From positions 15,528 through 79,527 of the forward strand of contig CALRCE010000001.1 in the NCBI GenBank assembly GCA_943354505.1: DNA of 64,000 nt. The letters are read 5' to 3'. How positions within the stretch are numbered: position 1 is the stretch's first letter; each line of letters begins with the position of its first letter. Made by a program: the position numbers and the translations under genes. Under the pieces are notes generated by a model, which was not told where the DNA came from, searched no databases, and was given only the letters and a program-made list of their open reading frames with translations. This DNA is from Candidatus Peribacteria bacterium. GTDB lineage: Bacteria; Patescibacteriota; Gracilibacteria; UBA1369; 2-02-FULL-48-14. Shown here piece after piece: positions 1 through 41,248 of this stretch.

Positions 1-204
1 AAACTCGCCTACCCTCTTCGTGCCACCGTGCTTGAACTCTGGTACCAAGACAGCACGGGCCGTCACGTACCGGATTCCGCCACTTTAGAACGTTGGGACG
101 AAGCCATCCTCACCTTCGATCCGCGCAAAAAAACCGAGTGGGATCCCTCCAGCAAAAAGATGCGCTTCCTCAGCATGAGCAAAGAAAGGGCGAAGTTGAT
201 TTAG
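1..204 (+). CDS. 3' end of an unidentified protein-coding gene (partial; start lies upstream of the window)
   Basis: Frame 1 is open from base 1 to TAG at 202-204 (67 codons, ...LELWYQDSTGRHVPDSATLERWDEAILTFDPRKKTEWDPSSKKMRF...). It is absent from the ORF track because no start codon lies in the window. The competing 85..267(-) ORF looks like a shadow. Confidence 0.4.
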   Translation, partial: KLAYPLRATVLELWYQDSTGRHVPDSATLERWDEAILTFDPRKKTEWDPSSKKMRFLSMSKERAKLI

Positions 205-208
205 TTTT

Positions 209-445
209 TTACTTCGAAGTTGATTCCTTGAGCAAACCTTGATCAACAGTCCGCTGACGTTCATCACGGATTCGCTGAATAAATGACTCCAAACTTTGAG
301 GCCTAGAAAGCTCTAAAAGCTGATCTTCAGAAACAGCTAGATCAAAGGCCTCAGGGACGGTGACGTTGTCAAAAACATCTCCAAATTCTTCACGGAAGCC
401 AGCCGTGTTTCTATTACGAATGCAATACAAAGTCACATGGGCCAA
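209..445 (-). CDS. hypothetical small protein (78 aa), last gene of the LOG/TrpF-like/GCHII-like operon
   Basis: ATG at 445 overlaps the stop of the upstream gene by 13 nt. The composition is protein-like (acidic/helical). I recognise no motif. Confidence 0.4.
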   Translation of the reverse strand: MAHVTLYCIRNRNTAGFREEFGDVFDNVTVPEAFDLAVSEDQLLELSRPQSLESFIQRIRDERQRTVDQGLLKESTSK

Positions 446-1614
446 AGGAAAAATCTTCCTGCCCCCCTGATTTGATTACGAACAATCTCTAAAAGAGGAA
501 GGAATTGAGCACTTTCATAATCTTTATAAGAACCCTTGAGCAACTTCCAAACATCCTCAGCAATAGCTTTATCAGTTTTATTCCTATGTTCCGAAGCCTT
601 TGTCACCGCTAAAATACCCACATCTTCAAGCAGTTTCACCTTCATCCGGTTATTCGTGATAACGGGCACTTGGCAAATTTTTGAAATCTCATCTAAGCCC
701 AATCCAAGCAAAGCTCTCATGGCAAACTCGTAACGCCTCATGTCCGTCACATCGTGGCCCGTGATTTCACGCATTGCACTGTCGGTGTCATGCCAAGTTT
801 GACCCAAGTATTTTCCTGTGTTTGGATTGTATCCTTCGACCAAGGCATGCGCTCTCGACTTCTCTAAAAGGTCGATACCCCTTCCTTCTTGTTGAAGATA
901 AAGCACCGCTCCAAATTGATTCTTCTCGATCGCTTCCAGCGCTTCATCGTACTGACCGCCACAAGAACAACGGCTTTGAGAAGCTCTTCCATCTCCACAT
1001 TCACAACGAGAGTGGATACGAAGCAAAAAAGATTTACCAGACTCTTCTGCCATACGGAGCAAAATCGCTCTTACATTTTCTGGAGACAAGTCCTCTCCTT
1101 CCTCTAAAGGTTTTGGGAGCCTCAAGTAAAAGTAGTGGGGATGGCCAGGGCCTTCCGTGACACCGCTGGCTGGATCGGCAAAATCAAAGAGAATCTGCAT
1201 CCAAGGACTCTCTGGAAAGCGACTGATTTCGTAAGGAATCGCCACGTCAAAATTCAAAGGTTTTTGAGGATTACGTTCGGCAGATAAAAATGCCTGAACT
1301 TCTTGAATCAAACGGTCACGAATGGGCTTAACGAGTGGCCAAAGCTCAACAGGAACAACTTTTTCTAAACTTCTTCTCTGTGCACACATCGCATCCAAAG
1401 GCCTTCGCGCCTCAATTCCAGGCAAAAAAGAGTCCAGTAGATCTTCTACTATAGCCCTACCTTCACCCACAGAACCAGCAACAGCCTCACGAATTTCAGC
1501 AATTCCACCTAAAAGGATTGCACCCAACCCTCGATGAATATAAAAGGGATCCTGAACGGTTGCCTCCGTACCTTCCGGAAGGGTAAAGCGCTTGTCTACA
1601 TCGAGAACAGTCAT
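433..1614 (-). CDS. GTP cyclohydrolase II (RibA)-like protein with unassigned N-terminal extension
   Basis: 393 aa. RibA-type signatures: zinc-Cys block HSRCECGDGRASQSRCSCGGQ (cf. HSECLTGD...CDCG.Q), YLQQEGRGIDLLEKSRAH (cf. YLRQEGRGIGL.NK..AY) and VITNNRMKVKLLEDVGI (cf. LLTNNP.K...L...GI). The ATG overlaps the upstream stop (ATGA at 1611-1614). Confidence 0.7.
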   Translation of the reverse strand: MTVLDVDKRFTLPEGTEATVQDPFYIHRGLGAILLGGIAEIREAVAGSVGEGRAIVEDLLDSFLPGIEARRPLDAMCAQRRSLEKVVPVELWPLVKPIRDRLIQEVQAFLSAERNPQKPLNFDVAIPYEISRFPESPWMQILFDFADPASGVTEGPGHPHYFYLRLPKPLEEGEDLSPENVRAILLRMAEESGKSFLLRIHSRCECGDGRASQSRCSCGGQYDEALEAIEKNQFGAVLYLQQEGRGIDLLEKSRAHALVEGYNPNTGKYLGQTWHDTDSAMREITGHDVTDMRRYEFAMRALLGLGLDEISKICQVPVITNNRMKVKLLEDVGILAVTKASEHRNKTDKAIAEDVWKLLKGSYKDYESAQFLPLLEIVRNQIRGAGRFFLWPM

Positions 1615-2393
1615 TGAGTTTTTGAAAGATTTAAAGCTTGATAAGCGGCTCCATAAAAACGGAGAGCTGCTTGCGGATCAAGAGAATCTCTTATGCGCAC
1701 AGCGGACTCCGTATCCACACTGATGGGTCGTCCAGGAACAATCGAACTAGCAGTGGCAAAAATGCTTGCCACATTGGCTTCCGACAATCCACCTGCAAGA
1801 GCTAAACCAACTTCGGGCTCCAAAGCAGCAAGGCGGGGCAAAAGATCCTGCAAGGTGCTTTTGTCTAAAACCTCTCCTCTACCCCCCGATAGGTCAACCA
1901 AAACATGAGCAACAAGGCCTCTACAGGCACTTAAAAATTCATCCACCCTTCCTGCTTCCACAAGACCCAAGTGCAAAGGAGCAATCAAACCATATGAAGG
2001 GTTCCACAATTGATCCCGAACAGGTTCTAAATCTTCTGCTCGAACTCCATTGAGCTGCACTGAGTGAATTCGATCAGGCTTTTCAATCCGTTCCATCAAG
2101 TCATAAAGTGCCCCACGAGGGTCTGTGCCACTGGTGGTCATGTCAAAATGCAAAGAAGCCATGGCTGAGGAAGGAACTGCTGCAATCAAACGATTCAAAG
2201 TACCCAGATCTGTGACCTTGCGAGGCGAAGGGGGTACGCGTCCTTCCAAAGTTCCTCGATCCACCGCAAACCCAATCAAAGGAATATGACCTTGAGGATG
2301 AGGCCACTGCAGGTCACCCAAACCCGCACCCACCGTTCGAACTTGGTCTTCAGTTTCGAAGGCACTAACGGCAATGTACGGAGAAGACTTCAT
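1611..2393 (-). CDS. phosphoribosylanthranilate isomerase (TrpF)-like TIM-barrel protein
   Basis: 260 aa. PRAI-like motifs: IHSVQLNG (cf. VQLHG), VLVDLSGGRGEVLD (cf. LLD..GGtGk.fdW), LALAGGLSEANV (cf. LAGGL.peNV), SVDTESAVR (cf. VDvsSGVE). No other trp genes are in the window. Confidence 0.6.
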   Translation of the reverse strand: MKSSPYIAVSAFETEDQVRTVGAGLGDLQWPHPQGHIPLIGFAVDRGTLEGRVPPSPRKVTDLGTLNRLIAAVPSSAMASLHFDMTTSGTDPRGALYDLMERIEKPDRIHSVQLNGVRAEDLEPVRDQLWNPSYGLIAPLHLGLVEAGRVDEFLSACRGLVAHVLVDLSGGRGEVLDKSTLQDLLPRLAALEPEVGLALAGGLSEANVASIFATASSIVPGRPISVDTESAVRIRDSLDPQAALRFYGAAYQALNLSKTQ

Positions 2394-2417
2394 GGTTTGA
2401 CAAAATAAGCTGAAATT

Positions 2418-4646
2418 CTATAACGAAGCAACGGCCTTGGCAAGATAAGGTGGAATTTTAAAACCACTGGTGCGAGAAATCTGTTCACAACTTGCAAAGG
2501 CTGCTTTCACTTTTTCTGGGGCAACTCCAATTCGACGCCAGTACACAGCAGGGTCACGAACGAAATCTTGAATGACCTCTAAGGCGGCGGCAGGACTATC
2601 AACAAAATGAAGACACTCAGAGACCCAGGCAGACTTATCATCCACCGTACCCTCCGCTCTGAATTTTGCAATCTGAACCTTAGTGGGTTCCCAGAAATGT
2701 TCCGCTCTTTTTTGAGCTTGAGGATCTAAAAGAATCACTGGAATAGGCAGCCCATTGAGTACTTTTTTATTGGTGAGGGTATTGAAAAGTTCTTCACCCG
2801 TACCAAAACCCCCCACATTGATGATACGAAAGGCCGCTCGACGCTCCATCAAATCTTGACGACAATTGGCACGGGCTTCTTGAGTGAAAGTGATCCAAGC
2901 ATCTGGACGACGAGATCCATCTTGTTCAACAGCAGCCAAGTCCGTACCAATCCCGATGGTCACAATGCCATTGGCGCGAGCCGTTCTGGAAGCCATTTCC
3001 ATAATGGCGGGTCCATTTCCATCCATTTCCGCCACTCCTTCCCCATAATCGAGCTCTGGCATGGCGGCCAAGCCAGCAAAAAAAGCATCGAACTCTGGCT
3101 CTAGGTGCTCAAAAGTACCGGTAACACTAGACCCGTAAAACACAACGGCCGTATGAGCATTGTCCACTCTTTCTCTCATTTTCGGTTCCACCCAAGTTTC
3201 ATTGTGAAAGACACGAACAGACTGATCCGGAAGGATTAAAAAGAACCGCACCCCTTTTTTTGAAAGAGTACAGAGTTCCACAAAAGCATCTCGATTCACG
3301 TTGAAAGATTCATTGACACCCAAGTGACGGAAAAAGAAAGTCCCCACACCTGACTTCGTGAGACTTCTTAAAACCTCGGGACGGGGCAAAGTGTCCAAGC
3401 TCACAATATTTTTTTGAGCAAGACTTCCACCAACATAAGATACAGCATCCAATACTGATTCGTAAGGATCCAAAGGCACGAGACGATCTTCCACACCACT
3501 AGCTCCATTCAAAAGTTTAGGAGTTTCCTCACAAAGATCGTCGTCGATATAGCCGACTTGCTCAGGATCTGGCCACTTGAACTCAGCCACTCTTCCTGGA
3601 GCAAGCAGGCGAGCATAAATTCCTCCTTCGGTCGGCGTACCACTGACACCATCCATCAACGCTTCAATCAAACGAGGCGATTGCACCTCGAGTACGTCTT
3701 CAATATGGACACCTTCTTCATGAGCCCGATGATCGGGCAAAAGTCGCCTAGCAACACTTCGGGTGATTTCATCAACGGGGTAAAACGCAAGATTCACAGA
3801 GAGACCATGCGGCTCAAGCGCTTGACCGCTGGCATTCAACAATTCCACATGGCGTGGAACACCCAAGCCGCTGGAACGAATCGGATCTAGATAAAAAGGC
3901 GCAAGATGGCGAACGCCACCCTGTCCACTCACCACCGCAGAAACAGCACCCAAAGAAACATGAATATCAGAGATAAGCACCGCCCCAGAAGGGAAAATCG
4001 GTGGAAGCCCTGGGTGACGACGTTGTTCTTGATCCAAACCAAACTTGTGACGACTCAAAATTTCTTCAATACGAGAAGGAGCTCTTAAGACACGGGCCCT
4101 AACAGGATGCGAGGCCTCGTTGATGGGAATACTGACTAGACCATCCTCACCCACAAATGCATTTTTTGGAAGAAGGAACCACTGACCGTTGTGAGTGATC
4201 ACTTCTTGACGAGTCAAAGCTGCTTCGGGGAGCAAAATATGTCTACCTAAAGCAAGAGCTCCTTTGCTCCTACTCACGATGGCTTTGATGACATCCAAAA
4301 CGGGTTCAGATCCAGCTCCCGCTGCAATCAAACGATGAGAAGTTTCTAAAGAGTTCGCCCCAATCACAGTGCTACCATCTGAAATAGGTTCCACCTCAAT
4401 TCCCAAACGGCCCAATACGCTTCGTGCACTCAAGCCAAGCAACCCAGAAATATTTCCTCCAGCATCTGCAATTTGGTCCCCCATAGGCCCGACCAGAGGC
4501 AGAGTCAAAGAAGTTCTGGAACGAAGCTCCAAAAAAGGCCTTCCGCTCAAAACACCACTTTCCTCTGCTAAGTTGCCTTCCTTCAAAACCTCAAACGCCT
4601 CGGCGTCTGAAGAAACAAGTGGGAAAGAAGGTCGAGAAAAATTCAT
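2418..4646 (-). CDS. large fusion protein: unknown ~500-aa N-terminal region + C-terminal LOG/TIGR00730-family (nucleotide 5'-monophosphate N-glycosidase-like) domain
   Basis: The ORF is open to TTG 4703 (761 aa). The first ATG is 4646 (742 aa) and a sigma70-like promoter sits at 4663-4691, so I prefer 4646. The C-terminal ~230 aa have a LOG Rossmann pattern, including INVGGFGTGEELFNTL (PGGxGTxxE motif) and a conserved upstream VVFYGSS block. Confidence 0.6.
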   Translation of the reverse strand: MNFSRPSFPLVSSDAEAFEVLKEGNLAEESGVLSGRPFLELRSRTSLTLPLVGPMGDQIADAGGNISGLLGLSARSVLGRLGIEVEPISDGSTVIGANSLETSHRLIAAGAGSEPVLDVIKAIVSRSKGALALGRHILLPEAALTRQEVITHNGQWFLLPKNAFVGEDGLVSIPINEASHPVRARVLRAPSRIEEILSRHKFGLDQEQRRHPGLPPIFPSGAVLISDIHVSLGAVSAVVSGQGGVRHLAPFYLDPIRSSGLGVPRHVELLNASGQALEPHGLSVNLAFYPVDEITRSVARRLLPDHRAHEEGVHIEDVLEVQSPRLIEALMDGVSGTPTEGGIYARLLAPGRVAEFKWPDPEQVGYIDDDLCEETPKLLNGASGVEDRLVPLDPYESVLDAVSYVGGSLAQKNIVSLDTLPRPEVLRSLTKSGVGTFFFRHLGVNESFNVNRDAFVELCTLSKKGVRFFLILPDQSVRVFHNETWVEPKMRERVDNAHTAVVFYGSSVTGTFEHLEPEFDAFFAGLAAMPELDYGEGVAEMDGNGPAIMEMASRTARANGIVTIGIGTDLAAVEQDGSRRPDAWITFTQEARANCRQDLMERRAAFRIINVGGFGTGEELFNTLTNKKVLNGLPIPVILLDPQAQKRAEHFWEPTKVQIAKFRAEGTVDDKSAWVSECLHFVDSPAAALEVIQDFVRDPAVYWRRIGVAPEKVKAAFASCEQISRTSGFKIPPYLAKAVASL

Positions 4647-4662
4647 AAAACAAGAAGAGAAG

Positions 4663-4691
4663 ACTGTAAAGTGGACAAGAAAAGAAATCAA
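4663..4691 (-). promoter_or_regulatory. candidate sigma70-type promoter of the LOG operon (TTGATT-N17-TACAGT)
   Basis: On the minus strand, -35 TTGATT is at 4691-4686, the spacer is 17 nt and -10 TACAGT is at 4668-4663. This lies about 16 nt upstream of ATG 4646. Confidence 0.35.
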
Positions 4692-4753
4692 GATCTTTGA
4701 CAAAAAAAATAAATGCGCCAGAATAAGAGACTTCAGACACCGAAGCCAACTAA

Positions 4754-5491
4754 ATGACTCCCAACGAATCGACCATAGAAAGTCTTGCGCATTCTGCTAA
4801 AGAAACCTTAGTGACTTTAGCAACAGATCTCTCCACAATCCCCGGCTTTGTGGATGCCTTCGCCACCTACGTGGCAGGAATTTGGGCGACCAGCGATTTT
4901 GCAAAAATGCGCGGAGCTCAAGGGTTAGGAGAAGAAAAAGTAGGATCTGAGTATGCAATGGCAGGCTGCGTTAAGTTTGCGGTAGCGGGTGGCACCAATG
5001 CACTCCTTCGAGGAGATTTCATCAATCTACTCTCTCAAACTCCCTTTCTGTTGGGTAGTTTTGCAGAGTACCTTGAACATCACCCTGAACTTCTAAAAGA
5101 TTCGCGTGTCAAACGTGCCTTCATAATACTGGGTTCTCTACCCGGAGTTCTAGCCACCAGCGCAGCAACAGGAGGTTTAGGCCTAGCCGCAAACATGGCT
5201 TCTGGAGAGTTTGAAGACCACCCCGCAACCTCTTTAGTCAAAGTACTGGGGTTCGGGGTTTCTCAATCGGGCTATGCCTTGAGAGAATCGAAAAACGGAC
5301 TGGCAAAAGGACTCGCGCACACCTTTGGAAACGGCATCATTGCAGTCGTGAGCTTTTTAGAAATTTTATACAAAATTCAAGCAGGATTACCCGTGAATCA
5401 CGCCTCTATATTTTGGGGAGTATCCTCCACAGCAAACACTTGGAACTCAGCAAAAGGTCTCGTCAAAGAAGGTCAGAGATTGATTGGATAA
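4754..5491 (+). CDS. hypothetical protein (245 aa, Gly/Ala-rich hydrophobic segments)
   Basis: Clean ATG ORF divergent from the LOG operon. No recognisable motif. Confidence 0.55.
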   Translation: MTPNESTIESLAHSAKETLVTLATDLSTIPGFVDAFATYVAGIWATSDFAKMRGAQGLGEEKVGSEYAMAGCVKFAVAGGTNALLRGDFINLLSQTPFLLGSFAEYLEHHPELLKDSRVKRAFIILGSLPGVLATSAATGGLGLAANMASGEFEDHPATSLVKVLGFGVSQSGYALRESKNGLAKGLAHTFGNGIIAVVSFLEILYKIQAGLPVNHASIFWGVSSTANTWNSAKGLVKEGQRLIG

Positions 5492-5538
5492 AACGGGTAC
5501 TAAACCGCCGCCGATAATCTTCAGTGAGAACCCCACCA

Positions 5539-5567
5539 TTGCATCTCTCCCCCCTCACCGCTAAAAT
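5539..5567 (+). promoter_or_regulatory. candidate promoter of ftsH (TTGCAT-N17-TAAAAT)
   Basis: -35 at 5539-5544, 17-nt spacer, -10 at 5562-5567, 29 nt upstream of the ftsH ATG. Confidence 0.5.
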
Positions 5568-5596
5568 AGCCGGGCTCTTTCACTCTCCAACAAAGC

Positions 5597-7453
5597 ATGG
5601 CAACTGCTCTACAAAAAAAAGGTCCGAGTCCCATCATCGCAATTCTCATTTTGGGATTACTGATTTCTGCGATCTACACGATTTGGAACCCCATCGGTGA
5701 AAAACCCTGGGAACAAGTGGCCCTCAGCACCTTTGTGCAAGACGTGGAAAGCGGAACCGTGACCGAAGTGGACGTGCTCGACAATCGTGTGAACTACGTG
5801 CTCGCCGACGACACTCAAAAATACGCTTTTAAAGAATACGGCCAGACGGTGGATGAAGTGCTCGCTGCCGTTCCGGATTCCGTGAAAGAAGGTCTGGAAA
5901 TCAACATCACCGATACCTCCAGCGACGGGCTTTGGCTCAACATCGGGCTCTCTATCATTCCGATCATTTTCATCATCGGTTTCCTTTGGTTCATGATGCG
6001 CGGCGCTCAAAGCAGCAACAATCAAGCGCTGTCTTTTGGTAAATCCAGTGCGCGCCTTCACGACAATGAAAAAGAACGCACCACCTTCGACAACGTCGCC
6101 GGACTCAAAGAAGCCAAAGAAGAACTGGTGGAAGTGGTGGACTTTCTCAAAAATCCGAGCAAGTACACCGCCATGGGTGCCAAAATTCCAAAAGGAGTGA
6201 TGCTCGTCGGGTCCCCCGGAAACGGTAAGACCCTCCTCGCCCGTGCCGTGGCCGGAGAAGCCAATGTGCCTTTCTTCAGCATCAGCGGATCCGAATTCGT
6301 CGAAATGTTCGTGGGAGTCGGCGCCAGCCGTGTGCGCGACCTCTTTAAAAAAGCCAAGCGCAACGCACCCTGCATCGTGTTCATGGACGAAATCGACGCG
6401 GTGGGTCGCCAACGTGGAACTGGAGTCGGTGGAGGACACGACGAACGCGAACAAACCCTCAACCAAATCCTCACCGAGATGGACGGTTTTGAAACCAACA
6501 CCGGCGTGATCGTGATGGCCGCCACCAACCGCCCCGATGTGCTGGACCCTGCCCTGCTCCGCCCCGGTCGTTTCGACCGCCGCGTGGTTGTGGACAGCCC
6601 CAGCATGGACGACCGTGAAGCCATCCTCAAAGTCCACTCCAAAAACAAGCCACTGGCCAAAGGCACAGACCTCCGCCACATCGCCAAACAAACACCGGGT
6701 TTCTCGGGAGCCGATCTCGAAAACGTGCTCAACGAAGCCGCCATCATGACCGCACGCCAAGGCAACAAAGAAATCACCGGACACGACATTGAAATGGCCG
6801 TGGAAAAAGTTCAACTCGGTCCAGAACGCAAGTCTCGCGTGCTCACCGACAAAGAAAAAGAAGTCACCGCCTATCACGAGTGTGGCCACGCCATCGTGGG
6901 TCACTTGCTTTCCGAATGCGATCCACTTCGAAAAATCACGATCATTTCCCTCGGAATGTCCCTGGGCTCCACTTGGTTTGTGCCCGAAGACGACAACCAC
7001 ATGTACACCCAAGAAAAATTCGAACACGAAATGGCCTCCCTGCTCGGAGGTTACGTCGCCGAAGAAATGGTATTCGGACAAGTTTCCACCGGCCCTTCCA
7101 ACGACCTGGAACGCGCCACCGGCATGGCTCGCCGCATGGTGACGGAATACGGAATGAGCAGCGTCGTGGGCCCCACCGTCTTCGGTGAAAAGAACCACGA
7201 AGTCTTCCTCGGCCGCGACTTTGGTCATGTGAAAAACTATTCTGAAGAAAAAGCCGCTGTCATCGACAAAGAGGTGCAAAGTTTGGTTGAAAAAGCCTAC
7301 AAAAAAGCCAAAGAAATCCTCACCAAACATCGCAAAGACCTCAGCACCATCGCCAAGACTTTAAAAGAGAAAGAAACCCTCACCCGAGAGGAGTTCATCG
7401 GCCTTTTAGAAGGCACTGTGAAACACAGCGGAGCAGCAAAGAAGAGGGCTTAG
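5597..7453 (+). CDS. ftsH: ATP-dependent zinc metalloprotease FtsH
   Basis: 618 aa. Two N-terminal TM segments, Walker A GSPGNGKT, Walker B IVFMDEID, and the zinc motif HECGHA. Confidence 0.97.
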
Positions 7454-7773
7454 AGAGCAACTGCAGGATAGCCTTGCCTAAATTGTCTAATAATGGAGGC
7501 AACGGCATCAACCTCCTGTCTTGCTTCTTGAACCTTAGCTTGATCTCCAGGTTTCAACCCATTAAGAGCCAATTCTCCCATGCGTTCCTCTTCCTTGTCA
7601 GCACTGACTAAGTACAAGGTCACGAGCGCAACGTCTTTACCGTACTTACGCACCAGTTCAGGACCTTTAGCACGAAGCTGACCTGCAGCTTCACGAGCTC
7701 TGGAAATTTCTTCTTCTTCCTGCCGATGGATAAACTCATCATCAAAACCAACCATAAACAAGAAATTAAACAT
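7450..7773 (-). CDS. hypothetical small helical protein (107 aa)
   Basis: ATG ORF convergent with ftsH (4-nt overlap of the ends). Charged helical composition, no motif. Confidence 0.5.
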   Translation of the reverse strand: MFNFLFMVGFDDEFIHRQEEEEISRAREAAGQLRAKGPELVRKYGKDVALVTLYLVSADKEEERMGELALNGLKPGDQAKVQEARQEVDAVASIIRQFRQGYPAVAL

Positions 7774-7825
7774 TTAAAACTGACCTGATTATAACACAAA
7801 ATAAGAGCTCTGAGAAGCTACCCAT

Positions 7826-7853
7826 TTGCGTTCAAACCAAAGTCAGCTAAAAT
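7826..7853 (+). promoter_or_regulatory. candidate promoter of hsp20 (TTGCGT-N16-TAAAAT)
   Basis: -35 at 7826-7831 and -10 at 7848-7853. The -10 box ends 8 nt before ATG 7862, which implies a (near-)leaderless mRNA. Confidence 0.45.
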
Positions 7854-7861
7854 ACCAACAT

Positions 7862-8320
7862 ATGACTCAAGTCGGCATTGGACAACTCAAACTCGCCAAA
7901 AAAGAAGGTGAAAAACTTCAGGTGCGTTTGAACGCGCGCCCTCATCCCAGTGTCGCCAACAAGAAAAACGAGGAGCAAGAACCCGAAGAAGGGCAGCTTT
8001 CTGTGGACATATTGCACACCGAAAACGAAATGGTGGTGCTCTGCCCCATCGCGGGAGTGGAAAAGACCGACATTCGCGTTTCTCTTCAAGACGACGTGCT
8101 CACCATTCGCGGAGAACGCAAGAAAGTAAGCGGCCTCGACCTGCACAAAACCTTGGTTGCAGAACTCTTTTGGGGCATTTTTTCTCGCTCCATCGTCCTT
8201 CCCGATCACATCGACCGCAAAGGCATTCAAGCTCGCGTGCACGAACACGTGCTCATCATCACGATTCCAAAAACAGAAGACTACAGAACTCGCATCATCC
8301 ACGTGAAAGCCGACGAATAA
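7862..8320 (+). CDS. Hsp20/alpha-crystallin family small heat-shock protein
   Basis: Alpha-crystallin domain: LSVDILHTENEMVVLCPIAGVEKTDIRVSLQDDVLTIRGERK ... ARVHEHVLIITIPK. The track start TTG 7826 coincides with the -35 box, so I prefer ATG 7862. Confidence 0.85.
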   Translation: MTQVGIGQLKLAKKEGEKLQVRLNARPHPSVANKKNEEQEPEEGQLSVDILHTENEMVVLCPIAGVEKTDIRVSLQDDVLTIRGERKKVSGLDLHKTLVAELFWGIFSRSIVLPDHIDRKGIQARVHEHVLIITIPKTEDYRTRIIHVKADE

Positions 8321-8333
8321 CTCCCTTCAAACC

Positions 8334-9206
8334 GTGAAACCGATCAAAAAAGTCGTGATCTTGGCGGCGGGACTCGGAACCCGTTTTTTACCCATGACCA
8401 AGGCCATTCCCAAGGCCATGTTGCCCATATTAGACAAGCCTGTCATCCAATACCTAGTCGAAGAAGCCCTCGACTCCGGAATTCAAGAAATCATCATTGT
8501 GACCGGAATGGGTAAACGCGCCATCGAAGAACACTTCGATCACAGTTACGAACTGGAACACGAACTCCGCTCTCGAGGCAAATTGGAGCTGCTCGAAACC
8601 ATGGAACGCATCGAAAAAAGAGCCCGTTTTGCCTATGTGCGCCAAGAAAACGCTCACGGCGACGGCCATGCCATCCTCTGCGCCAAAGACGTGCTGGGCG
8701 AAGAACCTTTTGCCGTCCTCTTTGGGGATGACATCGTGGATGGAAGCCGCCCCGCCCTACGCCAACTGCTCGACGTCTATGAAAAAACAGGAAATCCGGT
8801 GCTGTGTGTAGAAAAAGTGGCAGCTAAAGATCTCCCTAATTATGGAGTGATCGAAGTCCAGTCTCGAGAAAATCGAGAAATTCAGGTGAAAAGCCTCGTC
8901 GAAAAGCCGACTCCTGAAGCGGCTCCTTCCAATTATGGGATCATCGGCAAGTACATTTGCACCCCAGACGTGCTCAAAAACCTCGCCGAAAGCGAGTCCA
9001 GTCATACCGACGGCGAAATTCGCCTCATCGACGGACTACGTACGCACCTCGAAAATGGGGGTAAAATCGACGCCTGGGAAGTGGAAGGAACCCGTTACGA
9101 CACGGGCAATCCCTGGGGTCTTCTCGAGGCCAACGTGGCCTTTGCCCTCAAAGATCCAGAAACGCGCAGTCATCTGGACCAAATGATACACAAGAATAAT
9201 TCCTAG
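8334..9206 (+). CDS. galU: UTP--glucose-1-phosphate uridylyltransferase
   Basis: 290 aa. N-terminal nucleotidyltransferase motif KKVVILAAGLGTRFLPMTKAIPKAMLPI and GalU-like length and layout. GTG start. Confidence 0.9.
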   Translation: MKPIKKVVILAAGLGTRFLPMTKAIPKAMLPILDKPVIQYLVEEALDSGIQEIIIVTGMGKRAIEEHFDHSYELEHELRSRGKLELLETMERIEKRARFAYVRQENAHGDGHAILCAKDVLGEEPFAVLFGDDIVDGSRPALRQLLDVYEKTGNPVLCVEKVAAKDLPNYGVIEVQSRENREIQVKSLVEKPTPEAAPSNYGIIGKYICTPDVLKNLAESESSHTDGEIRLIDGLRTHLENGGKIDAWEVEGTRYDTGNPWGLLEANVAFALKDPETRSHLDQMIHKNNS

Positions 9207-11697: not shown

Positions 11698-12810
11698 ATG
11701 AAAAAACTCACACTGCTCTCCATCGTTCTGATCACCCTTCTAGCCCCCTTGAGCAATGCGTCGAGCGGCGTCCCCAACGACGACCTACTGAAACTCAGCA
11801 GCTTCCAAGAATACAAACTGCTGGACGAGCTGGATCTCACTGTGCCCACCGTAGTGGAACTGCCCTTTGAAGAGAACGAAGACATCGGCTTTGATTGCGC
11901 TGTTCTGAACAATGAGACTCAAGAGTTTTTGCCATGGATCATCAAAACCGTATCCGACTCCGTGGCCGTGACAAGCACCACTCCCGAACTGGTGGACGGC
12001 AGCACAAAAACCTCAGTGGAATACCAAGTCCCCGAGCAAGGTCCGGGCCTCGCAGCATTGAGTTTTTCAAGTGACACGGCCATCACTTCCAGCAGCCTGC
12101 ACTTCACTTTAGACCCCTATGTGGCCTTACCCACAAGCGTCAAACTTTCTGTTCTGAACGACGATGGAAGTGAAAAAATCATCATCTCCACCACTAAAAT
12201 GACGAGCACGAGTCTCAGCTTCCCCTCCACCACCGCAAAGGAATGGAAAGTGGAACTCAGCTACAGCCAATTCTTAAGAATCAACGAAGTGGAACTGGGT
12301 CAAAGCAACACCAAGGTGCAAAAGAGCCTTCGCTTCCTCGCTCAACCCGACAGCAGCTACACCGTTTACTTCAATGCAGATGCCGCAGTATCCATCCTCA
12401 CCTCTGAAGCAGGAGACCTCAATAGCAATAAGGGGGTTCAAACGCTCGAAGCCCTTGCGAGCACAGCCAATCCTTCCTACCAAAAAACCGACAGCGATGA
12501 AGATGGCATCCCCAACGAAAACGACAACTGTGTGAATCTTGCAAATCCCGATCAAACCGACGAAGACGGAAACGGACGTGGGAACGAATGTGACGACTAC
12601 GACCGAGATGGCATCCTGAATGTGAAAGACAACTGCCCCAACGACCCCAATAAAGCCCAAGAAGACACCGATGGCGACCTTATCGGCGACACTTGCGATT
12701 CCGAAGAAAGTCGCCTCACCGAGCAATACCCTTGGCTGCCCTGGCTGGGCTTAGGTGGAGCGGCTCTCATCATTGGAGCTTTGTTTTATTCGACAGCGAG
12801 GAAGAAATAA
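11698..12810 (+). CDS. secreted, C-terminally membrane-anchored protein with thrombospondin type-3 (calcium-binding) repeats
   Basis: Signal peptide [26 protein letters not shown]3-type repeats [71 protein letters not shown]-terminal TM segment [16 protein letters not shown]. Confidence 0.75.
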
Positions 12811-12863: not shown

Positions 12864-13266
12864 TGCTTCCGCGTGATCGCGAAGTTCTGGCCTTGGTCAA
12901 AACTTCGAGGAAAGTCCGAGCAAGATCAGGCAGGAAAGCCGCTAACGGCGGCCGTGCGTTGACCTAAAAAACAGCGCATAGGGAAAGTGCCACAGAGACG
13001 AGTAACGTTAAACGCCCCCTCTGCTAGAGCCCTCGGGTTCGGGCACGGGGAGCCCCTTCGTAAGGAGGACGGCTCGGTAAACCCTTTTCCTTGCAAGGTG
13101 AGATTGGAGAGTTGGAATCGGCGGCCTGTCGCCCCAATTCGCTCACCGCCACGAGCGCTTCAGCAATGAAACGCCCAGAGAGATGATCACGACCGAAGGG
13201 GAGTGACCCGAGCGTAAGCGAGGGATCACCACCATTCGGTACAGAACTCGGCTTATAGGAAGCACC
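12864..13266 (+). ncRNA. rnpB: RNase P RNA, bacterial type A
   Basis: P4 strands GAGGAAAGUCCGAGC (12907-12921) and ACAGAACUCGGCUUAU (13241-13256). Conserved modules GGGAAAGUGCCACAGAGA and GGUAAACCC are present. P1 UGCUUCC/GGAAGCA pairs 12864-12870 with 13258-13264, P2 is GUGAUC/GAUCAC, and the P3 hairpin is GAAGUU...AACUUC. End positions are accurate to a few nt. Confidence 0.9.
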
Positions 13267-13275
13267 ATCAAAGAG

Positions 13276-31259: not shown

Positions 31260-32192
31260 ATGGATTTCTTAAGTCCCCTCTACGAACGCGCTCGGCAAAA
31301 CCCCAAGCGCATCGTGTTTGCCGAAGGCACCGAACCACGAGTTTTGGAGGCCGCAGCCGAACTCAAAAAACAAGGGCTCTGCACCCCGATCTTGCTAGAA
31401 AATCCAGAAGCTCATCCAAAGTTTCAAGCCCACATTCAGCGTTTCCAAGAACTGCGTGGCAGCACAGTAGAAGAAGCCACCGAGAAAATGAAAAATCCGC
31501 ACTATTTTGCCACCATGCTGCTGCACGAAGGCGAAGCGGACGGAATGATCGCCGGCCCCACCGCCCCTTCCAAAGAACGCATCTTGCCGGCTCTTGAACT
31601 GATCAAAACCAAGATCGAACACCACCGCGTGTCCGGAGCCATGATCATGATTCTGCCCGAAACTGTGGACCCGGATGCCGCCAATGGAGGAGTCCTACTT
31701 TTTGCCGATTGTGCCGTGAACATTGAACCCACGGTGGAAGTGCTCGCCCAAATTGCCAGCGACACGGCAGACACGGCTTCACACCTGGGGTTGGATCCAA
31801 AAATCGCCCTCCTCTCCTTTTCAACCGCCGGCTCAACCGAGCATCCCCTGACTAAAAAAATGCGCGACGCCGCAGACTTGATCAAACACCAGCGCCCCGA
31901 TCTTGCGGTGGAAGGAGAAATGCAAGTGGACACCGCACTCATGGACGAAGTCGCCGCCCTCAAAGACCCCGGCTCGCCCATTGCCGGTCACGCCAATGTT
32001 TTAATTTTCCCCGACTTGGAAGCCGGCAACATCGGCTACAAACTCGTGGAACGGCTCGCCGGTGCCACCGTGATCGGCCCCATTTTGCAAGGACTCAAAA
32101 AACCCATGAACGAAGTCTCGCGCGGAAGCACGAGCCAAGACATTTTCAACCTCGCAGTTTTCACCTGTATCCAAGCCCAACTACCAGCGTAG
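31260..32192 (+). CDS. pta: phosphate acetyltransferase (short PTA_PTB form)
   Basis: 310 aa. RIVFAEGTEPRVLEAAAELKKQGLCTPILL, ADCAVN, PDLEAGNIGYKL. Confidence 0.9.
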   Translation: MDFLSPLYERARQNPKRIVFAEGTEPRVLEAAAELKKQGLCTPILLENPEAHPKFQAHIQRFQELRGSTVEEATEKMKNPHYFATMLLHEGEADGMIAGPTAPSKERILPALELIKTKIEHHRVSGAMIMILPETVDPDAANGGVLLFADCAVNIEPTVEVLAQIASDTADTASHLGLDPKIALLSFSTAGSTEHPLTKKMRDAADLIKHQRPDLAVEGEMQVDTALMDEVAALKDPGSPIAGHANVLIFPDLEAGNIGYKLVERLAGATVIGPILQGLKKPMNEVSRGSTSQDIFNLAVFTCIQAQLPA

Positions 32193-34547
32193 CACCTTCA
32201 CCTCTTCGGGATCGTCCCCGACTTCGCAAATGTACTTTTGATGGTCGGCGATTTTCTGAGTGAGCATCTTGATGAGAGCATCCTTCTTTTTCGCGACGGC
32301 TTTGTTGGTCTTGGAAGCTTGGCGAATCATGTCCATGGACAAGTGATAAAAGTCCACTTCATTGGTGACCTTCAAATCAAAAGGCGTGGTGGTGGAACCG
32401 CGTTCTTGGTAGCCGTGAATGCTGATGCGCTTGGAACTGGCGAAGGGCCACAAGATTTGCTCCATGTCGTTGGTGTAGCCATGATAGTTGATCACCACCG
32501 GTTTATCGTCCGTGAAGAATTCGGTGACCGTCTCCTGACTCATTTCCGCATGATGCGTGGAACAGAAATCGCCCATACAAAGCCCTGTGACTTCCGAAAT
32601 ATTCACGTAACGCACCTTCATTTCAGGAACCAATTCCTTACACAATTTCACGGCGTGCAAAGCTTCTTGAGTCATATAGTCTCCCGCTGAAGCCAAGACC
32701 ACATCTGGATTCTTCGTCCCTTCTTTGCCACCCACCCATTCCCAAATTCCAATCCCCCGCTTGGCTTGCTCACGAGCCTCCGCCAAGGTGAGCCACTGAG
32801 GTACTTCGCGCTTATCCGCGACCAAAACATTGATGGTGTTGGGACGCGTATAAGCCTGTTCCAAAGCCACTAAAAAGCTGTTCGCATCGGCAGGATAGTA
32901 TACACGGCAGAACTCTCCATGCTTTTGCAAAACGTTGCTCACGAAGCTGGGGTTCTGATGCGAGTAACCGTTGTGTTCCTGCCTCCAACCCACGCTCGCA
33001 AGGTGGTAAACAAGAGGTGGAACCGGCTTGCGCCACTCAATTTTGAAACTCTGCTTGAGGAACTTCGCATACTGATCCACCATGCTCGCAATGATGATGA
33101 GAAAGGCTTCGTAACTGGAAAAGAATCCATAACGCCCCGTGAGGGTGTAGCCCATCATCCACGCTTGAAGTGTGTGCTCCGAAAGCATTTCCAAAATCCG
33201 CCCATCCGCCTGCATGTTTTCGTCATTCTTATTGAGCGGCCATTGATAGCCACGTCCCGTCACTTCAAAAGGAGCCTTGATCATATTGGAAATGAGTTCG
33301 TCGGGACAGAAAATACGGAAGGTTTTGGGATTGAGTTTGATCACATCACGCAAAAATTCTCCACCCACGGGCGTGCTTCCCGATTGAATGGCTCCACGTT
33401 TTTTGACCTTCAAGGCAAACTTGCTGAGCGCCGGCATTTTGAGGGGCTGCATCATGTTTCCGCCAATGGCGTGCTTGCACATTCCAATGCGTTTGGAGCC
33501 AGTCGGCACAAATTCCAAGAGCTCCGGTTTTGGACGACCTTGAGCGTCCACCAATTCTTTAATCTTGTACATTTTGAGCCACGATTCAATGGCCTTTCGA
33601 GCCACAGGATCGGTTTTAGGGTGATCCACAGGCACTCCATGCGCGTGGAAAGAACCTTCCACATGATGCCCTTTAAAATTCTTAAGCCCCTTCCAACCCT
33701 TGGGGGAACGGAGCAAAATCACCGGCCACTTGGGTTTCAAATAGGGTTTCTTTGAAGCGCGCGCTTTCTTTTGAATCGCACGGATTTTTTGGTAGGCCTT
33801 CTCCATGGTTTCCATCATTTTCTTCTCCAAATTCGGCGCCTCCACAATCATGGGTTCATAACCATAACCTGTGAACAAAGCCTTGAGCTCCGCATCGTCC
33901 ATGCGGCCAAACAAAGTGGGATTCGAAATCTTGTATCCATTGATGTGCACAATGGGCAGCACCGCACCCGAAACACGCGGATTCAAAAACTTATTGCTAT
34001 GCCACGCCGCCGCAATCGGACCCGTCTCCGCTTCTCCATCCCCCACAATCGCCACGGCAATCAAATTCGGATTGTCCATCACCGCTCCGTACGCCGTCGC
34101 CAAACTATAACCCAATTCCCCTCCTTCCAAAATGGACCCCGGAACACCCGGTGTCACGTGGCTCGGAAACTTTGTGTGAGGCCAAGAAAAATCATGGATG
34201 AGTTGTCCCATTCCTTGCGCATTGCGAGGATAAGCAGGGTAGACATCTCCCATGGTTTTTTCGGCAAACAAGTTCGCCAAAATCGCAGGCGCTCCGTGAC
34301 CAGGTCCCGTCACGATGAGCATTTCACAGGCGTGCTTCCAGACCAAATAATTGAGGTTCGCATAAATAAAATTAATGCCCGGCACGGTTCCCCAGTGACC
34401 CAGAATTCGGATCTTGATGTCGTCGGGTTCCAACTTTTTTTCGAGAAAATAATTGTCCTTCAAATAAAGCTGTGCCGCTCCAAGGTAGTCGACGAAGCGC
34501 AAGTATTTTGAAAGCCACTTGAGGGCTTTTTGATCCGTTTTGGTCAT
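32181..34547 (-). CDS. xfp: xylulose-5-phosphate/fructose-6-phosphate phosphoketolase
   Basis: XFP signatures: YLRFVDYLGAAQLYLKDN, GHWGTVPG, GPGHGAPA, GDGEAETGP. The track start GTG 34580 is less likely than ATG 34547. The 3' end overlaps pta by 12 nt (convergent). Confidence 0.95.
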   Translation of the reverse strand: MTKTDQKALKWLSKYLRFVDYLGAAQLYLKDNYFLEKKLEPDDIKIRILGHWGTVPGINFIYANLNYLVWKHACEMLIVTGPGHGAPAILANLFAEKTMGDVYPAYPRNAQGMGQLIHDFSWPHTKFPSHVTPGVPGSILEGGELGYSLATAYGAVMDNPNLIAVAIVGDGEAETGPIAAAWHSNKFLNPRVSGAVLPIVHINGYKISNPTLFGRMDDAELKALFTGYGYEPMIVEAPNLEKKMMETMEKAYQKIRAIQKKARASKKPYLKPKWPVILLRSPKGWKGLKNFKGHHVEGSFHAHGVPVDHPKTDPVARKAIESWLKMYKIKELVDAQGRPKPELLEFVPTGSKRIGMCKHAIGGNMMQPLKMPALSKFALKVKKRGAIQSGSTPVGGEFLRDVIKLNPKTFRIFCPDELISNMIKAPFEVTGRGYQWPLNKNDENMQADGRILEMLSEHTLQAWMMGYTLTGRYGFFSSYEAFLIIIASMVDQYAKFLKQSFKIEWRKPVPPLVYHLASVGWRQEHNGYSHQNPSFVSNVLQKHGEFCRVYYPADANSFLVALEQAYTRPNTINVLVADKREVPQWLTLAEAREQAKRGIGIWEWVGGKEGTKNPDVVLASAGDYMTQEALHAVKLCKELVPEMKVRYVNISEVTGLCMGDFCSTHHAEMSQETVTEFFTDDKPVVINYHGYTNDMEQILWPFASSKRISIHGYQERGSTTTPFDLKVTNEVDFYHLSMDMIRQASKTNKAVAKKKDALIKMLTQKIADHQKYICEVGDDPEEVKVLRW

Positions 34548-34585
34548 GGCGTGTGACGTGAAAGAGTGGAACAGATTCACTTTAT

Positions 34586-34604
34586 CTCAAAGATAATCTT
34601 TGAG
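34586..34604. promoter_or_regulatory. 19-nt perfect palindrome CTCAAAGAT-A-ATCTTTGAG in the xfp/ackA divergent intergenic region (candidate operator)
   Basis: Read directly from the sequence. It is centred between the two start codons (34547 and 34659). Confidence 0.35.
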
Positions 34605-34658
34605 CAAAAGAATATGATTTTGCAAACCCTCTTCCGATTTCCCAACAAAACTCTTACA

Positions 34659-35825
34659 ATGAATTCACAAACCACGCTAATGTCCATTCTCGTTCTCAAT
34701 GCCGGATCTTCATCGTTGCGCTTTTGCGTGTTCAATAAAAATTTAGAAAAAATCTACAAAGGACACATCGACGCCATCGGACAAAAGCACTGTCTCTACC
34801 GCCACTACCTCCCCACCGGCGAAGAACAAATTCAGATCAAAGCAAGGAACCACAAAGCTGCCATCCACTATGTGCTCAAAGCGCTGACAAAACATGGCAT
34901 CGTCAAAGACTTGAGTTCCATAAAAAAAGTCGGCCATCGTGTGGTGCACGGCGGAGAAAAATTCACCCAACCTTTGCTCATCAACGCAAAAAATCTCAAA
35001 GAACTCAGTGCCCTCGCCCCGCTCGCGCCGCTGCACAATCCCGCCAACATCGAAACGCTCAAGGCCTGCCTCAAAGCTCTGCCCAAAGCAAAACACGTGG
35101 CCGTCTTCGACACGGCTTTTCACAGCACTCTGCCATCCAAAGCCTTCCTCTACGGCCTGCCCTACGAGCTCTACGAAAAGGAGCACCTCAGACGCTACGG
35201 CTTTCACGGAACCAGTCACAAATACGTGAGCGGAGTCGCCACCAAGCTGCTCAAAAAACCTTCAGCCAAACTCCTCACTTGCCACATTGGGAACGGAGTC
35301 AGTATCGCCGCCATCCAAAAAGGAATCTGTCTAGACACCACCATGGGCTACACCCCCTTGGAAGGACCTCTCATGGGCACGCGCAGCGGCACCGTGGATC
35401 CGGGCCTCGTTCTCGAACTCGTCAAAAAAAGAGGCCTCAAAAAAACAGAGCAGCTGCTCCAAAAAGAATCCGGATTCAAAGGACTCTCTGGACTCGGCTC
35501 CGACGTTCGTACCTTATGGGCTCAGCCCAAACATCCCGGAACGCTGCGCACCTTCGAAGTCTTCAGCTATCAAATGGCTAAACTCCTGTGCAGCAACTTT
35601 GCAACGCTGAGCGGCCTTCCCGACGCCATTGTCTTCACCGCGGGCATTGGAGAAAACGCCTACTACCTCCGCAAGCAAATCCTAGACTACTTAAAACCTT
35701 TTGGCTTCGTGCTCGACGAGAAAGCCAACAAAGCAAACAAACTCGTGATTTCAAGTACCAAATCAAAAATCAAAGCCTTCGTCATTCCCACTGAAGAAGA
35801 ACTCCAAATCGCAAGAGAACTTTAG
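34659..35825 (+). CDS. ackA: acetate kinase
   Basis: LVLNAGSSSLRF, RYGFHGTSHKY, TCHIGNGVSIAA, FTAGIGENA. The track start GTG 34566 adds 31 non-conserved residues. I prefer ATG 34659, with ATG 34680 also possible. Confidence 0.93.
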   Translation: MNSQTTLMSILVLNAGSSSLRFCVFNKNLEKIYKGHIDAIGQKHCLYRHYLPTGEEQIQIKARNHKAAIHYVLKALTKHGIVKDLSSIKKVGHRVVHGGEKFTQPLLINAKNLKELSALAPLAPLHNPANIETLKACLKALPKAKHVAVFDTAFHSTLPSKAFLYGLPYELYEKEHLRRYGFHGTSHKYVSGVATKLLKKPSAKLLTCHIGNGVSIAAIQKGICLDTTMGYTPLEGPLMGTRSGTVDPGLVLELVKKRGLKKTEQLLQKESGFKGLSGLGSDVRTLWAQPKHPGTLRTFEVFSYQMAKLLCSNFATLSGLPDAIVFTAGIGENAYYLRKQILDYLKPFGFVLDEKANKANKLVISSTKSKIKAFVIPTEEELQIAREL

Positions 35826-40809: not shown

Positions 40810-41248
40810 GAAACTCGTCTCGGAATTCCTCGTCAATCTCAGCATCGATTTTACAGATGTAGAAGTCGAAGAAGTCAGTGAAAAGGAATACCGCGTGAAC
40901 GTTATTTCCGAAGAACCCAATTTGATGATTGGACACCACGGAGAGAACCTCCTCGCCATGCAAAAGATCCTCACGGTGATCTTCCACAAAATGCTGGGCG
41001 AAGATGTGCTCATCACCTTTGATGTGGACAGCTACCGCAAACGCCAAGAAGAAAACGTGCTCACCATCGCTAAGCAAAAGATCAACGAAGTCCGCACGTC
41101 TCGCATTCAATCCGCTCTTCCCCCCATGTCGCCTTACTTCAGACGACTGGTTCACTTATACATTAAAGACAGTGGGTTTTCAGACATCACGACCGAGTCC
41201 ATCGGTGAAGGCAATTACCGCCAAGTGATGATCAAACCCCTTGTATGA
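40793..41248 (+). CDS. jag: Jag/KhpB-type RNA-binding protein (KH + R3H domains)
   Basis: KH-like LMIGHHGENLLAMQKIL and the R3H region PMSPYFRRLVHLYIKD. I prefer ATG 40793 over the track GTG 40775. Confidence 0.85.
   Translation: MEKQIKKLVSEFLVNLSIDFTDVEVEEVSEKEYRVNVISEEPNLMIGHHGENLLAMQKILTVIFHKMLGEDVLITFDVDSYRKRQEENVLTIAKQKINEVRTSRIQSALPPMSPYFRRLVHLYIKDSGFSDITTESIGEGNYRQVMIKPLV

Follow-up and report, generated by a model that had tools for sequence, protein, structure and literature searches.

Organization of the operon

The window analyzed here, a 64,000-nucleotide stretch of contig CALRCE010000001.1 from a Candidatus Peribacteria bacterium, carries close to its first position a compact minus-strand operon of four open reading frames (ORFs), which we number in the order of transcription: gene 1 encodes a LOG-domain fusion protein, gene 2 a TrpF-like protein, gene 3 a divergent GTP cyclohydrolase II (GCHII), and gene 4 is a small ORF. 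The proposed functional core of this operon is the gene 3/gene 2 pair, which we tentatively place in a GTP-derived and possibly pterin-forming route, and two of the three operon proteins belong, by sequence comparison, to families that are undescribed. As judged from the relatives of gene 1 in Peregrinibacteria and Peribacteria, the operon is lineage-specific to a bacterium of the candidate phyla radiation (CPR). A preliminary description of this DNA had reported four packed minus-strand ORFs, and the coordinates bear this out: genes 1 and 2 are separated by 24 nt, genes 2 and 3 overlap by 4 nt, and genes 3 and 4 overlap by 13 nt. The features are:

Gene 1, 2418-4703, minus strand: LOG-domain fusion protein, 761 aa from TTG at 4703 or 742 aa from ATG at 4646
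Gene 1, N-terminal module, 3189-4646, minus strand: residues 20-505
Gene 1, LOG domain, 2418-3188, minus strand: Pfam match spanning 2577-3002
Gene 2, 1611-2393, minus strand: TrpF-like protein, 260 aa
Gene 3, 433-1614, minus strand: divergent GCHII, 393 aa
Gene 3, core, 580-1239, minus strand: approximately residues 126-345
Gene 3, N-terminal extension, 1240-1614, minus strand: about 125 aa, lineage-specific
Gene 4, 209-445, minus strand: 78-aa ORF

The start of gene 1 is most likely the ATG at 4646, giving 742 aa, because the recorded form of the protein (P0037) begins there and residues 5-21 of the longer form are modeled with a pLDDT below 50.

Co-occurrence of the operon genes

Gene 2 followed by a GCHII gene, on the same strand and nearly abutting, is found in the window, in its one syntenic relative and, independently, on a phage-like contig. 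The syntenic relative, a 32-kb Logan contig (L002), is the only close relative of the locus. It retains genes 1, 2 and 3 in order, with gaps of 21 nt and 8 nt, and has flanks in common with the window: ftsH, HSP20 and an NTP-transferase at one end of the operon, a PP-loop ATPase at the other end. Between the window and L002, protein identity is 66% for gene 1, 62% for gene 2 and 36% for gene 3.

On the 7-kb phage-like contig (L038, positions 1-7032 of Ga0105164_10006266), a GTP_cyclohydro2 protein (E = 1.6e-23) is encoded about 28 nt downstream of a gene 2 relative. Upstream of the gene 2 relative lie a RimK-type ATP-grasp protein and an ORF that weakly resembles deaminases of the cytidine deaminase (CDA) fold; elsewhere on the contig are DHFR, a dCTP deaminase, a TPR protein, thymidylate synthase and a dCMP deaminase. 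Judged by its predicted gene content, this context is a phage-style, folate-dependent dTMP module. The deaminase-like ORF matches Pfam at E = 6e-4 and a PDB cytidine deaminase at E of about 1.5, which is too weak for assignment as RibD, Cdd or dCMP deaminase.

Genes 1, 2 and 3 occur together nowhere beyond the syntenic L002 among the loci recovered. No homologue of gene 2 or gene 3 was detected at the 21 non-syntenic gene 1 loci by tblastn and purpose-built hidden Markov models (HMMs), and no LOG-like ORF was present at the approximately 13 other distinct gene 2 loci, with GCHII solely in L038; a GCHII HMM found no further GCHII in any other fetched locus. The preliminary description had joined the three genes in one pathway, an idea to be given up if they did not co-occur in related genomes. 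We find the trio confined to the window and L002, and it is not supported as a conserved unit.

Gene 3 belongs to a GCHII subtype without Tyr105

Gene 3 matches PF00925 (GTP_cyclohydro2; E = 9e-18, 64.8 bits against a gathering score of 23.3) and the RibA structures 2bz0 and 4rl4, and it misses the ribA equivalog cut-offs (TIGR00505, 77 bits against 205.85; NF001591, 76 against 148). The RibA zinc-Cys and EGRG signatures previously noted in this protein are present as a zinc Cys triad and a QEGRG motif. In E. coli RibA numbering, with the alignment checked against the printed 2bz0 alignment over residues 40-166, gene 3 retains Cys54/65/67, R49, E92, R94, K101, D113, D126, R128, N151 and K154. 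The zinc Cys triad and Arg128 are likewise kept in the L002 orthologue and the L038 enzyme.

Three positions that are nearly constant in canonical RibBA are altered in all three of these proteins. Tyr105, which we take to be the catalytic Tyr of RibA, is His in gene 3, Leu in L002 and Met in L038; Asn118 is Met, Met and Leu, respectively; and Pro152 is Arg, Ala and Gln. In the 34 canonical RibBA proteins recovered by the gene 3 search, by comparison, Tyr105 is present in 33 of 33, Asn118 in 33 of 34 and Pro152 in 34 of 34. The loss of the otherwise invariant Tyr105 from gene 3 means that the enzyme should not be presumed to follow canonical RibA chemistry. The L038 GCHII is not close to gene 3, in that its best BLAST matches are canonical RibBA proteins and both enzymes lie on long, separate branches. 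The shared departure from Tyr105, Asn118 and Pro152 in all three gene 2-linked GCHIIs, one of them not close kin, supports the link between gene 2 and GCHII. A word-indexed search with gene 3 returned only gene 3 itself and distant RibBA proteins. We considered whether its N-terminal extension is the decayed RibB part of a RibBA fusion, and neither hmmsearch nor hhalign detected similarity.

Gene 4, earlier listed as a separate 78-aa unknown, is probably the detached C-terminal tail of gene 3 and not an independent gene. The L002 gene 3 orthologue has 424 aa, with no separate gene 4 called, and residues 31-67 of gene 4 align weakly (E = 0.066) and collinearly with its residues 384-423. A second assembly (L001) shows the same gene 3/gene 4 split. 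The frames of the two ORFs join at a G6 run (462-467) and a T5 run (449-453), with the stop codon of gene 3 and the start of gene 4 a short way downstream. A single-base indel or slip at either run would fuse the two frames into a protein like the 424-aa orthologue.

Gene 2 and its relatives in phage and cellular contigs

Gene 2 scores 22.2 bits against the Pfam PRAI model (PF00697), below the 22.7 cut-off and over residues 161-232 only. Its relatives in phages and L038 have no Pfam match, and NCBIfam equivalog cut-offs are missed widely by genes 1, 2 and 3. When a profile of 16 gene 2 sequences was compared with the PDB, the best match was the TrpF structure 4aaj (E = 0.0012), followed by 1lbm/1nsj, 5lhe/5lhf and 1dl3, with all matches to TrpF structures confined to β6-β8, one third of the protein. 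Comparison of the family with the E. coli PRAI domain by hhalign gave a local β6-β7 match of 46 columns at a probability of 4.9%.

Invariant in the 16 members are Y6, G41, P57, H82, H110, Q113-L114-N115, D167, S169, G171, G173, G201-G202-L203, D227 and E229. The strings VLLD.SGG.G, AGGL and IDAEG.LR correspond to TrpF β6-β8, and D167, S169, G171, G173 and G201-L203 align to "LLD..G.GK ... AGGL" of 4aaj, such that the β6 Asp and the phosphate-binding loops are kept. The general base of TrpF is a Cys in β1 (Cys7 in T. maritima), and its counterpart in HisA is an Asp. Gene 2 has no Cys or Asp there: β1 is PY[IV][AG]V[ST][AG]F in 16 of 16 members (PYIGITGF in the window). The earlier view of gene 2 as a TrpF-like TIM barrel thus holds for the similarity in β6-β8 and the phosphate loops, and is weakened by the sub-threshold PRAI score and the absent catalytic Cys. 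TrpF appears to be the closest known family, by a marginal similarity, and membership in it is not established; gene 2 and its relatives are best described as a new, predicted TIM-barrel-like family common to phage and cellular contigs.

Gene 2 is a singleton at 90% identity clustering. A tblastn search found a 27%-identical relative in the 485-kb uncultured phage LR745208.1, an alignment of three sequences led to 16 metagenomic loci, and a phage-type alignment added two viral contigs, of 138 kb and 163 kb. A metagenome scan with patterns from the two CPR sequences alone found nothing. Plasmids contained no gene 2 relative, and among GenBank phages a gene 2 relative occurs in LR745208.1 only and any GCHII in three records only.

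The neighborhoods of gene 2 relatives are mostly unlike each other, and include a MurC-like ligase, a ketoacyl synthase, an EgtD-like methyltransferase, an NTP-transferase, DnaB helicases and a reverse transcriptase. In both LR745208.1 (L026) and L040, the gene 2 relative has a Nuc_deoxyri_tr2-type protein upstream, and L040 has a weak match to dATP/dGTP pyrophosphohydrolase nearby. In LR745208.1, a same-strand run (L026, 4158-12661) comprises the gene 2 relative, a 405-aa Nuc_deoxyri_tr2-like protein, a Macro protein, a calcineurin-like phosphoesterase (Metallophos), a YggL-like protein and several ORFs without a family; it looks like a cluster with a ribose-phosphate or ADP-ribose theme.

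Gene 1 joins a new N-terminal module to a LOG domain

The architecture proposed earlier for gene 1, a large N-terminal region followed by a LOG domain with the motif GGFGTGEE, is confirmed by a match to PF03641 (E = 3e-10, 40.8 bits against a gathering score of 27) at residues 568-709, with the motif at residues 631-638. PF03641 is matched by 36 of 45 aligned family members. Across the 45, R615, Q616, G634, T635 and E638 never vary, and G631/G632 hardly do; with R615 and E638 both constant, the catalytic Arg/Glu pair of LOG is intact. The Pro of PGGxGTxxE is swapped for Val, Ile or Asn in the family (gene 1 reads V-GGFGTGEE at 630-638), and gene 1 misses the curated TIGR00730 cut-off (25.9 bits against 96.35).

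For the LOG domain, a search of PDB sequences gave 9us2 (E = 9e-8). Foldseek with the full-length AlphaFold2 model (pLDDT 90.1) found LOG structures only: Neisseria YgdH (9us2), 1wek, the type-II LOG 5wq3, Rv1205 and PpnN. Matches to stand-alone LOGs had a target-normalised TM-score of 0.7-0.8 (0.73-0.81, with E down to 4e-10, for 9us2, 7w2i, 3sbx and 5zbk), and those to PpnN (6gfl, 9hs1-3) covered about 250-300 columns with a target-normalised TM-score of about 0.33. Gene 1 has no PpnN-type flanking domains, in that its N-terminal 500 aa have no Pfam match and the N-terminal model has no PpnN match.

The N-terminal module has no Pfam match in any of the 45 members. Modeled alone (residues 20-505, pLDDT 93.2), it has no Foldseek match in the PDB at E<=1e-3; its weak PDB matches are recurrently dUTPases and CDA-fold deaminases, and its BFVD matches are herpesvirus dUTPase-related proteins, dUTPases and dCMP deaminases. 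Positions conserved in the module are S95, G153, G188, G252, R276, R284, E287 and G331, and the alignment contains no conserved Cys or His, no zinc motif and no dUTPase or deaminase catalytic motif. We are confident that the module, as modeled, is a new multi-domain fold with remote dUTPase-like and cytidine-deaminase-like character. Because no Cys/His zinc or dUTPase motif is conserved, we infer that its role is most likely nucleotide-binding rather than catalytic. Structure prediction thus leaves what had been described as an unknown region of about 500 aa outside known families, and adds to it these remote similarities.

A word-indexed protein search with gene 1 found one relative, the L002 orthologue at 66% identity, and a 45-sequence profile added nothing new in that search. 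Exhaustive HMMER searching gave at least 150 matches; among the matches listed, about 100 are full-length (740-830 aa, 20-28% identity), and local HMMs detect both the N-terminal module and LOG in 104 of 149 representatives. By these comparisons, proteins of about 750 aa with a fixed N-terminal module and LOG are an undescribed family.

Fourteen of the 15 full-length relatives whose loci were fetched come from Peribacteria/Peregrinibacteria metagenome-assembled genomes (MAGs) and one from an unclassified MAG; one more Peribacteria locus matched gene 1 over its C-terminus only. CTP synthase follows the gene 1 relative at 10 of the 15 full-length loci, all in Peribacteria MAGs (L004, L005, L008, L010-L013, L015, L017 and L024), and an H+-pyrophosphatase lies upstream in five of these 10. 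Further downstream there is often pyrD or a branched-chain-type ABC transporter. In Opitutaceae, shorter relatives (637-649 aa) are followed by purD.

Of the catalytic residues of the operon, whose loss would have counted against the pathway first suggested, the LOG Arg/Glu pair, the zinc triad and Arg128 are kept, and Tyr105 of gene 3 and the β1 Cys of gene 2 are gone.

A possible pterin-forming route from GTP

Chlamydia RibA and TrpF turn GTP into 7,8-dihydroneopterin monophosphate (H2NMP) in vitro, bypassing FolE and FolQ (PMC4161248). The preliminary description had judged it chemically plausible for a TrpF-type isomerase to act on the GCHII product, and this system demonstrates such chemistry. 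The pairing of gene 2 with a Tyr-less GCHII is a modestly supported lead, drawn from sequence, that resembles this bypass. In the reading that we favor, and hold only tentatively, gene 3 would open GTP to a phosphoribosylamino-pyrimidine and gene 2 would process it toward a pterin, with gene 1 as a co-transcribed nucleotide N-glycosidase. Domains, conserved and lost residues, gene order and co-occurrence are the observations to which we attach all substrates, products and the order of steps, conditionally, as follows.

Gene 3, competent by its zinc site and Arg128, would hydrolyze the imidazole ring of GTP and free pyrophosphate, yielding a 6-(5-phosphoribosylamino)pyrimidinone. GCHII proceeds by ring opening and pyrophosphate release to the 5-formylamino form, AFRPP, and then by deformylation to DARoPP (PMC9478397); because Tyr105 is missing, the product of gene 3 would probably be AFRPP and not the deformylated DARoPP. 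Gene 2, with its β6 Asp and its own set of His, His, Asn, Asp and Glu, would bind the phosphoribosylamine, open its ribosyl ring and isomerize it in an Amadori-type reaction, steps that alone or after deformylation could give a dihydroneopterin-phosphate-like pterin. Gene 1, as a LOG nucleoside-5'-monophosphate N-glycosidase of a housekeeping family, may control guanine-nucleotide supply, with its dUTPase-like and deaminase-like N-terminal modules probably sensing nucleotides; alternatively, it might hydrolyze surplus reactive ribosylamino-pyrimidine monophosphates, analogous to COG3236. COG3236 is an N-glycosidase that hydrolyzes GCHII-derived ribosylamino-pyrimidine phosphates to ribose-5-phosphate and a pyrimidine, according to Frelin et al. 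(2015) as cited in bioRxiv 10.1101/2020.02.26.966523, and it offers a precedent for this possible role. Its fold, however, is unrelated to that of gene 1, and the gene 1 family is normally not beside GCHII genes.

For Peribacteria, tetrahydrofolate-dependent enzymes are reported with no recognizable folate biosynthesis genes (PMC4736985). The pterin route draws support from these missing genes and from the DHFR/ThyA context of L038, both of which fit it. Several observations weigh on the other side. The gene 2/GCHII pair is known from only two independent lineages, the approximately 13 other distinct gene 2 loci have no GCHII within 6-8 kb, and the partnership of gene 1 with genes 2 and 3 is limited to one lineage. 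Gene 2 is below the Pfam threshold and has neither the Cys7 of TrpF nor the Asp of HisA as a general base. No folB, folK, folP or queD was seen near any locus. Were gene 3 to go no further than AFRPP, its product would keep the N5-formyl group, which blocks pterin ring closure unless it is removed. The functional meaning of the Tyr105 change is also presumed, from work of Spoonamore and Bandarian of 2006 and 2008: in S. coelicolor, a paralogue of RibA in which Met replaces this Tyr reportedly stops at AFRPP, and a residue swap is said to interconvert the two activities.

The S. coelicolor paralogue, SCO6655, reported to have Met for Tyr, would share Met at this site with L038, where gene 3 has His and L002 has Leu. 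As in the Chlamydia system (Adams et al. 2014), genes 2 and 3 combine a GCHII-type enzyme with a TrpF-type barrel that would work on a GTP-derived phosphoribosylamino-pyrimidine, and TrpF was studied there for a function unrelated to making tryptophan; gene 2 relatives likewise seem to work outside that pathway. Chlamydial RibA and TrpF(CtL2), by contrast, are ordinary and unlinked, and that TrpF keeps phosphoribosylanthranilate isomerase activity, whereas genes 2 and 3 are adjacent and known here from sequence; gene 2 is a separate sub-threshold family without the β1 Cys, and gene 3 lacks Tyr105. AFRPP is documented as a discrete intermediate (PMC9478397), and another related system is archaeal GTP cyclohydrolase III (ArfA) with the ArfB/BrbF formamidases. 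Unlike that system and SCO6655, the loci described here have no creatininase-type formamidase nearby, the partner is TIM-barrel-like, and Asn118 and Pro152 are changed as well. Like LOG and PpnN (YgdH), gene 1 has at its C-terminus the LOG fold, GGxGTxxE and the Arg/Glu pair, and like PpnN it holds a LOG core inside a much larger protein; it differs from PpnN in an N-terminal module of about 500 aa with no counterpart there or in any solved structure, and from LOG in its TIGR00730 score far under the cut-off and in the replaced Pro of PGGxGT.

Alternative explanations

A smaller yet appreciable chance attaches to there being no joint function at all, with gene 1 a housekeeping nucleotide N-glycosidase and genes 2 and 3 merely its downstream neighbors in a compact CPR genome; the pair itself may or may not cooperate. 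Compact CPR genomes routinely pack and overlap unrelated genes, and between the two syntenic genomes identity drops to 36% for the much faster evolving gene 3, against 66% and 62% for genes 1 and 2. Relatives of gene 1 adjoin CTP synthase (10/15), H+-pyrophosphatase or, in Opitutaceae, purD, never gene 2 or 3, and a LOG-like ORF is found at none of the other gene 2 loci. Against this reading stand tight same-strand packing that persists in L002 at just 36-66% protein identity, a GCHII product of the very class that LOG enzymes cleave (an N-riboside 5'-monophosphate), and the presence of another family of the nucleoside monophosphate glycosidase type, Nuc_deoxyri_tr2, upstream of gene 2 at two phage-type loci. 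Those same N-glycosidase-type neighbors would suit the pentose salvage suggested in the preliminary description, in which LOG would free ribose-5-phosphate from guanine or other nucleotides, gene 2 would act as an aldose-ketose isomerase, and the carbon would pass to phosphoketolase. This reading, which we consider improbable, is consistent with the intact LOG catalytic pair, with the sugar-phosphate binding site that gene 2 appears to keep, and with gene 2 relatives that often stand alone, as expected for an enzyme of a common metabolite. The phosphoketolase module is real and in the window, with strong Pfam matches to pta (31260-32192), xfp (32181-34580, minus strand) and ackA (34566-35825), but it lies 27 kb from the operon behind ftsH, a sugar transferase, secA, ftsK, gltX and other unrelated genes, such that the proposed feeding of pentose phosphate into it is unsupported. 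Salvage would also leave GCHII, the sole recurring partner of gene 2, without a role, and large phages with gene 2 beside DnaB helicases have no obvious need of a pentose isomerase.

If gene 3 made AFRPP as a bacterial enzyme of the GTP cyclohydrolase III type (the "BrbG" activity), gene 2 could be the formamidase or a later enzyme in a variant of early riboflavin synthesis. The loss of Tyr105 with the zinc site and Arg128 kept would fit, in bacteria that have the BrbF formamidase the enzyme that forms AFRPP is still missing (PMC9478397), and the CDA-fold deaminase-like ORF just upstream in L038 is where RibD chemistry would suggest. That match is very weak, however; no locus has ribD, ribH, ribE, ribB or a creatininase-type formamidase nearby, the AFRPP formamidases known so far have folds other than the TIM barrel, and a complete canonical riboflavin pathway is reported for Peribacteria (PMC4736985). 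We accordingly give the riboflavin variant little chance. The probability also seems low that the genes make a modified base or nucleotide, such as a deazapurine or pyrimidine that serves as precursor in DNA modification, or some other specialized metabolite, as a phage-derived module captured by a CPR lineage. Three large viral contigs (485, 163 and 138 kb) do carry gene 2 relatives among nucleotide- and replication-type neighbors (Nuc_deoxyri_tr2, Macro, Metallophos, DnaB and the weak dATP/dGTP pyrophosphohydrolase-like match), and L038 is a phage-style dNTP module. Against this, no known modification gene came to light, DpdA and QueC/D/E included, PADLOC was empty, and the CPR operon sits between housekeeping genes (tilS-like and ftsH) in two genomes.

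Significance of the three protein groups

Three unnamed protein groups are now defined: the LOG fusion of about 750 aa, mostly from Peribacteria MAGs; the TrpF-like barrel of phage and cellular contigs; and the Tyr105-less GCHII subtype, which is a candidate for the still-missing bacterial AFRPP-forming cyclohydrolase. Should a pterin be the product of the gene 2/gene 3 pair, the pair would amount to a genetically fixed counterpart of the chlamydial patchwork bypass of GTP cyclohydrolase I, and could help explain the supply of folate or pterin precursors in some candidate-phylum bacteria and large phages without a recognizable folE. A broader and more doubtful extension is that gene 2 relatives are dedicated isomerase/cyclases which, with a Tyr-less GCHII or host RibA, constitute a route of two enzymes that yields dihydroneopterin phosphate without FolE in CPR bacteria and large phages, and that gene 1 represents a new class of multi-domain, nucleotide-sensing LOG N-glycosidase that gates or cleans this route.

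Boundaries of the operon and the surrounding window

The operon is bounded by two plus-strand ORFs:

1-204, plus strand: 3' end of a convergent PP-loop ATPase gene (ATP_bind_3, TilS-like)
4754-5491, plus strand: divergent 245-aa ORF, function unassigned by family search, followed by ftsH

The PP-loop ATPase is of the same family as the L001 and L002 neighbors annotated PF01171, and the ORF at 4754-5491 has no Pfam, NCBIfam or PADLOC match. In L002 the same interval between gene 1 and ftsH is occupied by a 255-aa ORF (7731-8498, minus strand) with no BLAST similarity to the 245-aa ORF of the window and no family match. PADLOC gave no match at E<=1 for the four operon proteins and the divergent neighbor, and a defense system is rejected on this basis.

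No riboflavin, tryptophan or folate (rib, trp, fol) families were found among the 29 window ORFs scanned. The earlier statement that the window contains no other riboflavin or tryptophan genes holds for these 29, about 20 further window ORFs and the rest of the genome lying outside the scan. The L002 neighbors likewise include no ribD/ribH/ribE/ribB or trpA-E. Promoter and terminator scans gave signal not above shuffled background, and an Rfam scan of the 64 kb found no riboswitch or other RNA near the operon; its sole gathering-score matches were a class A RNase P RNA (12864-13268, plus strand, 145 bits) and a tRNA (45513-45584, minus strand).

GC skew is negative in all 2-kb bins of the window (-0.05 to -0.21), and because its sign never changes, the whole window would lie on a single replichore arm. 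GC content is about 50% and drops to 43-45% beyond approximately 58 kb. Predicted surface proteins are encoded at 11698-12810 (a thrombospondin type 3 repeat protein) and 41245-42156 (an SLH-domain protein with a DPBB lytic-transglycosylase domain).

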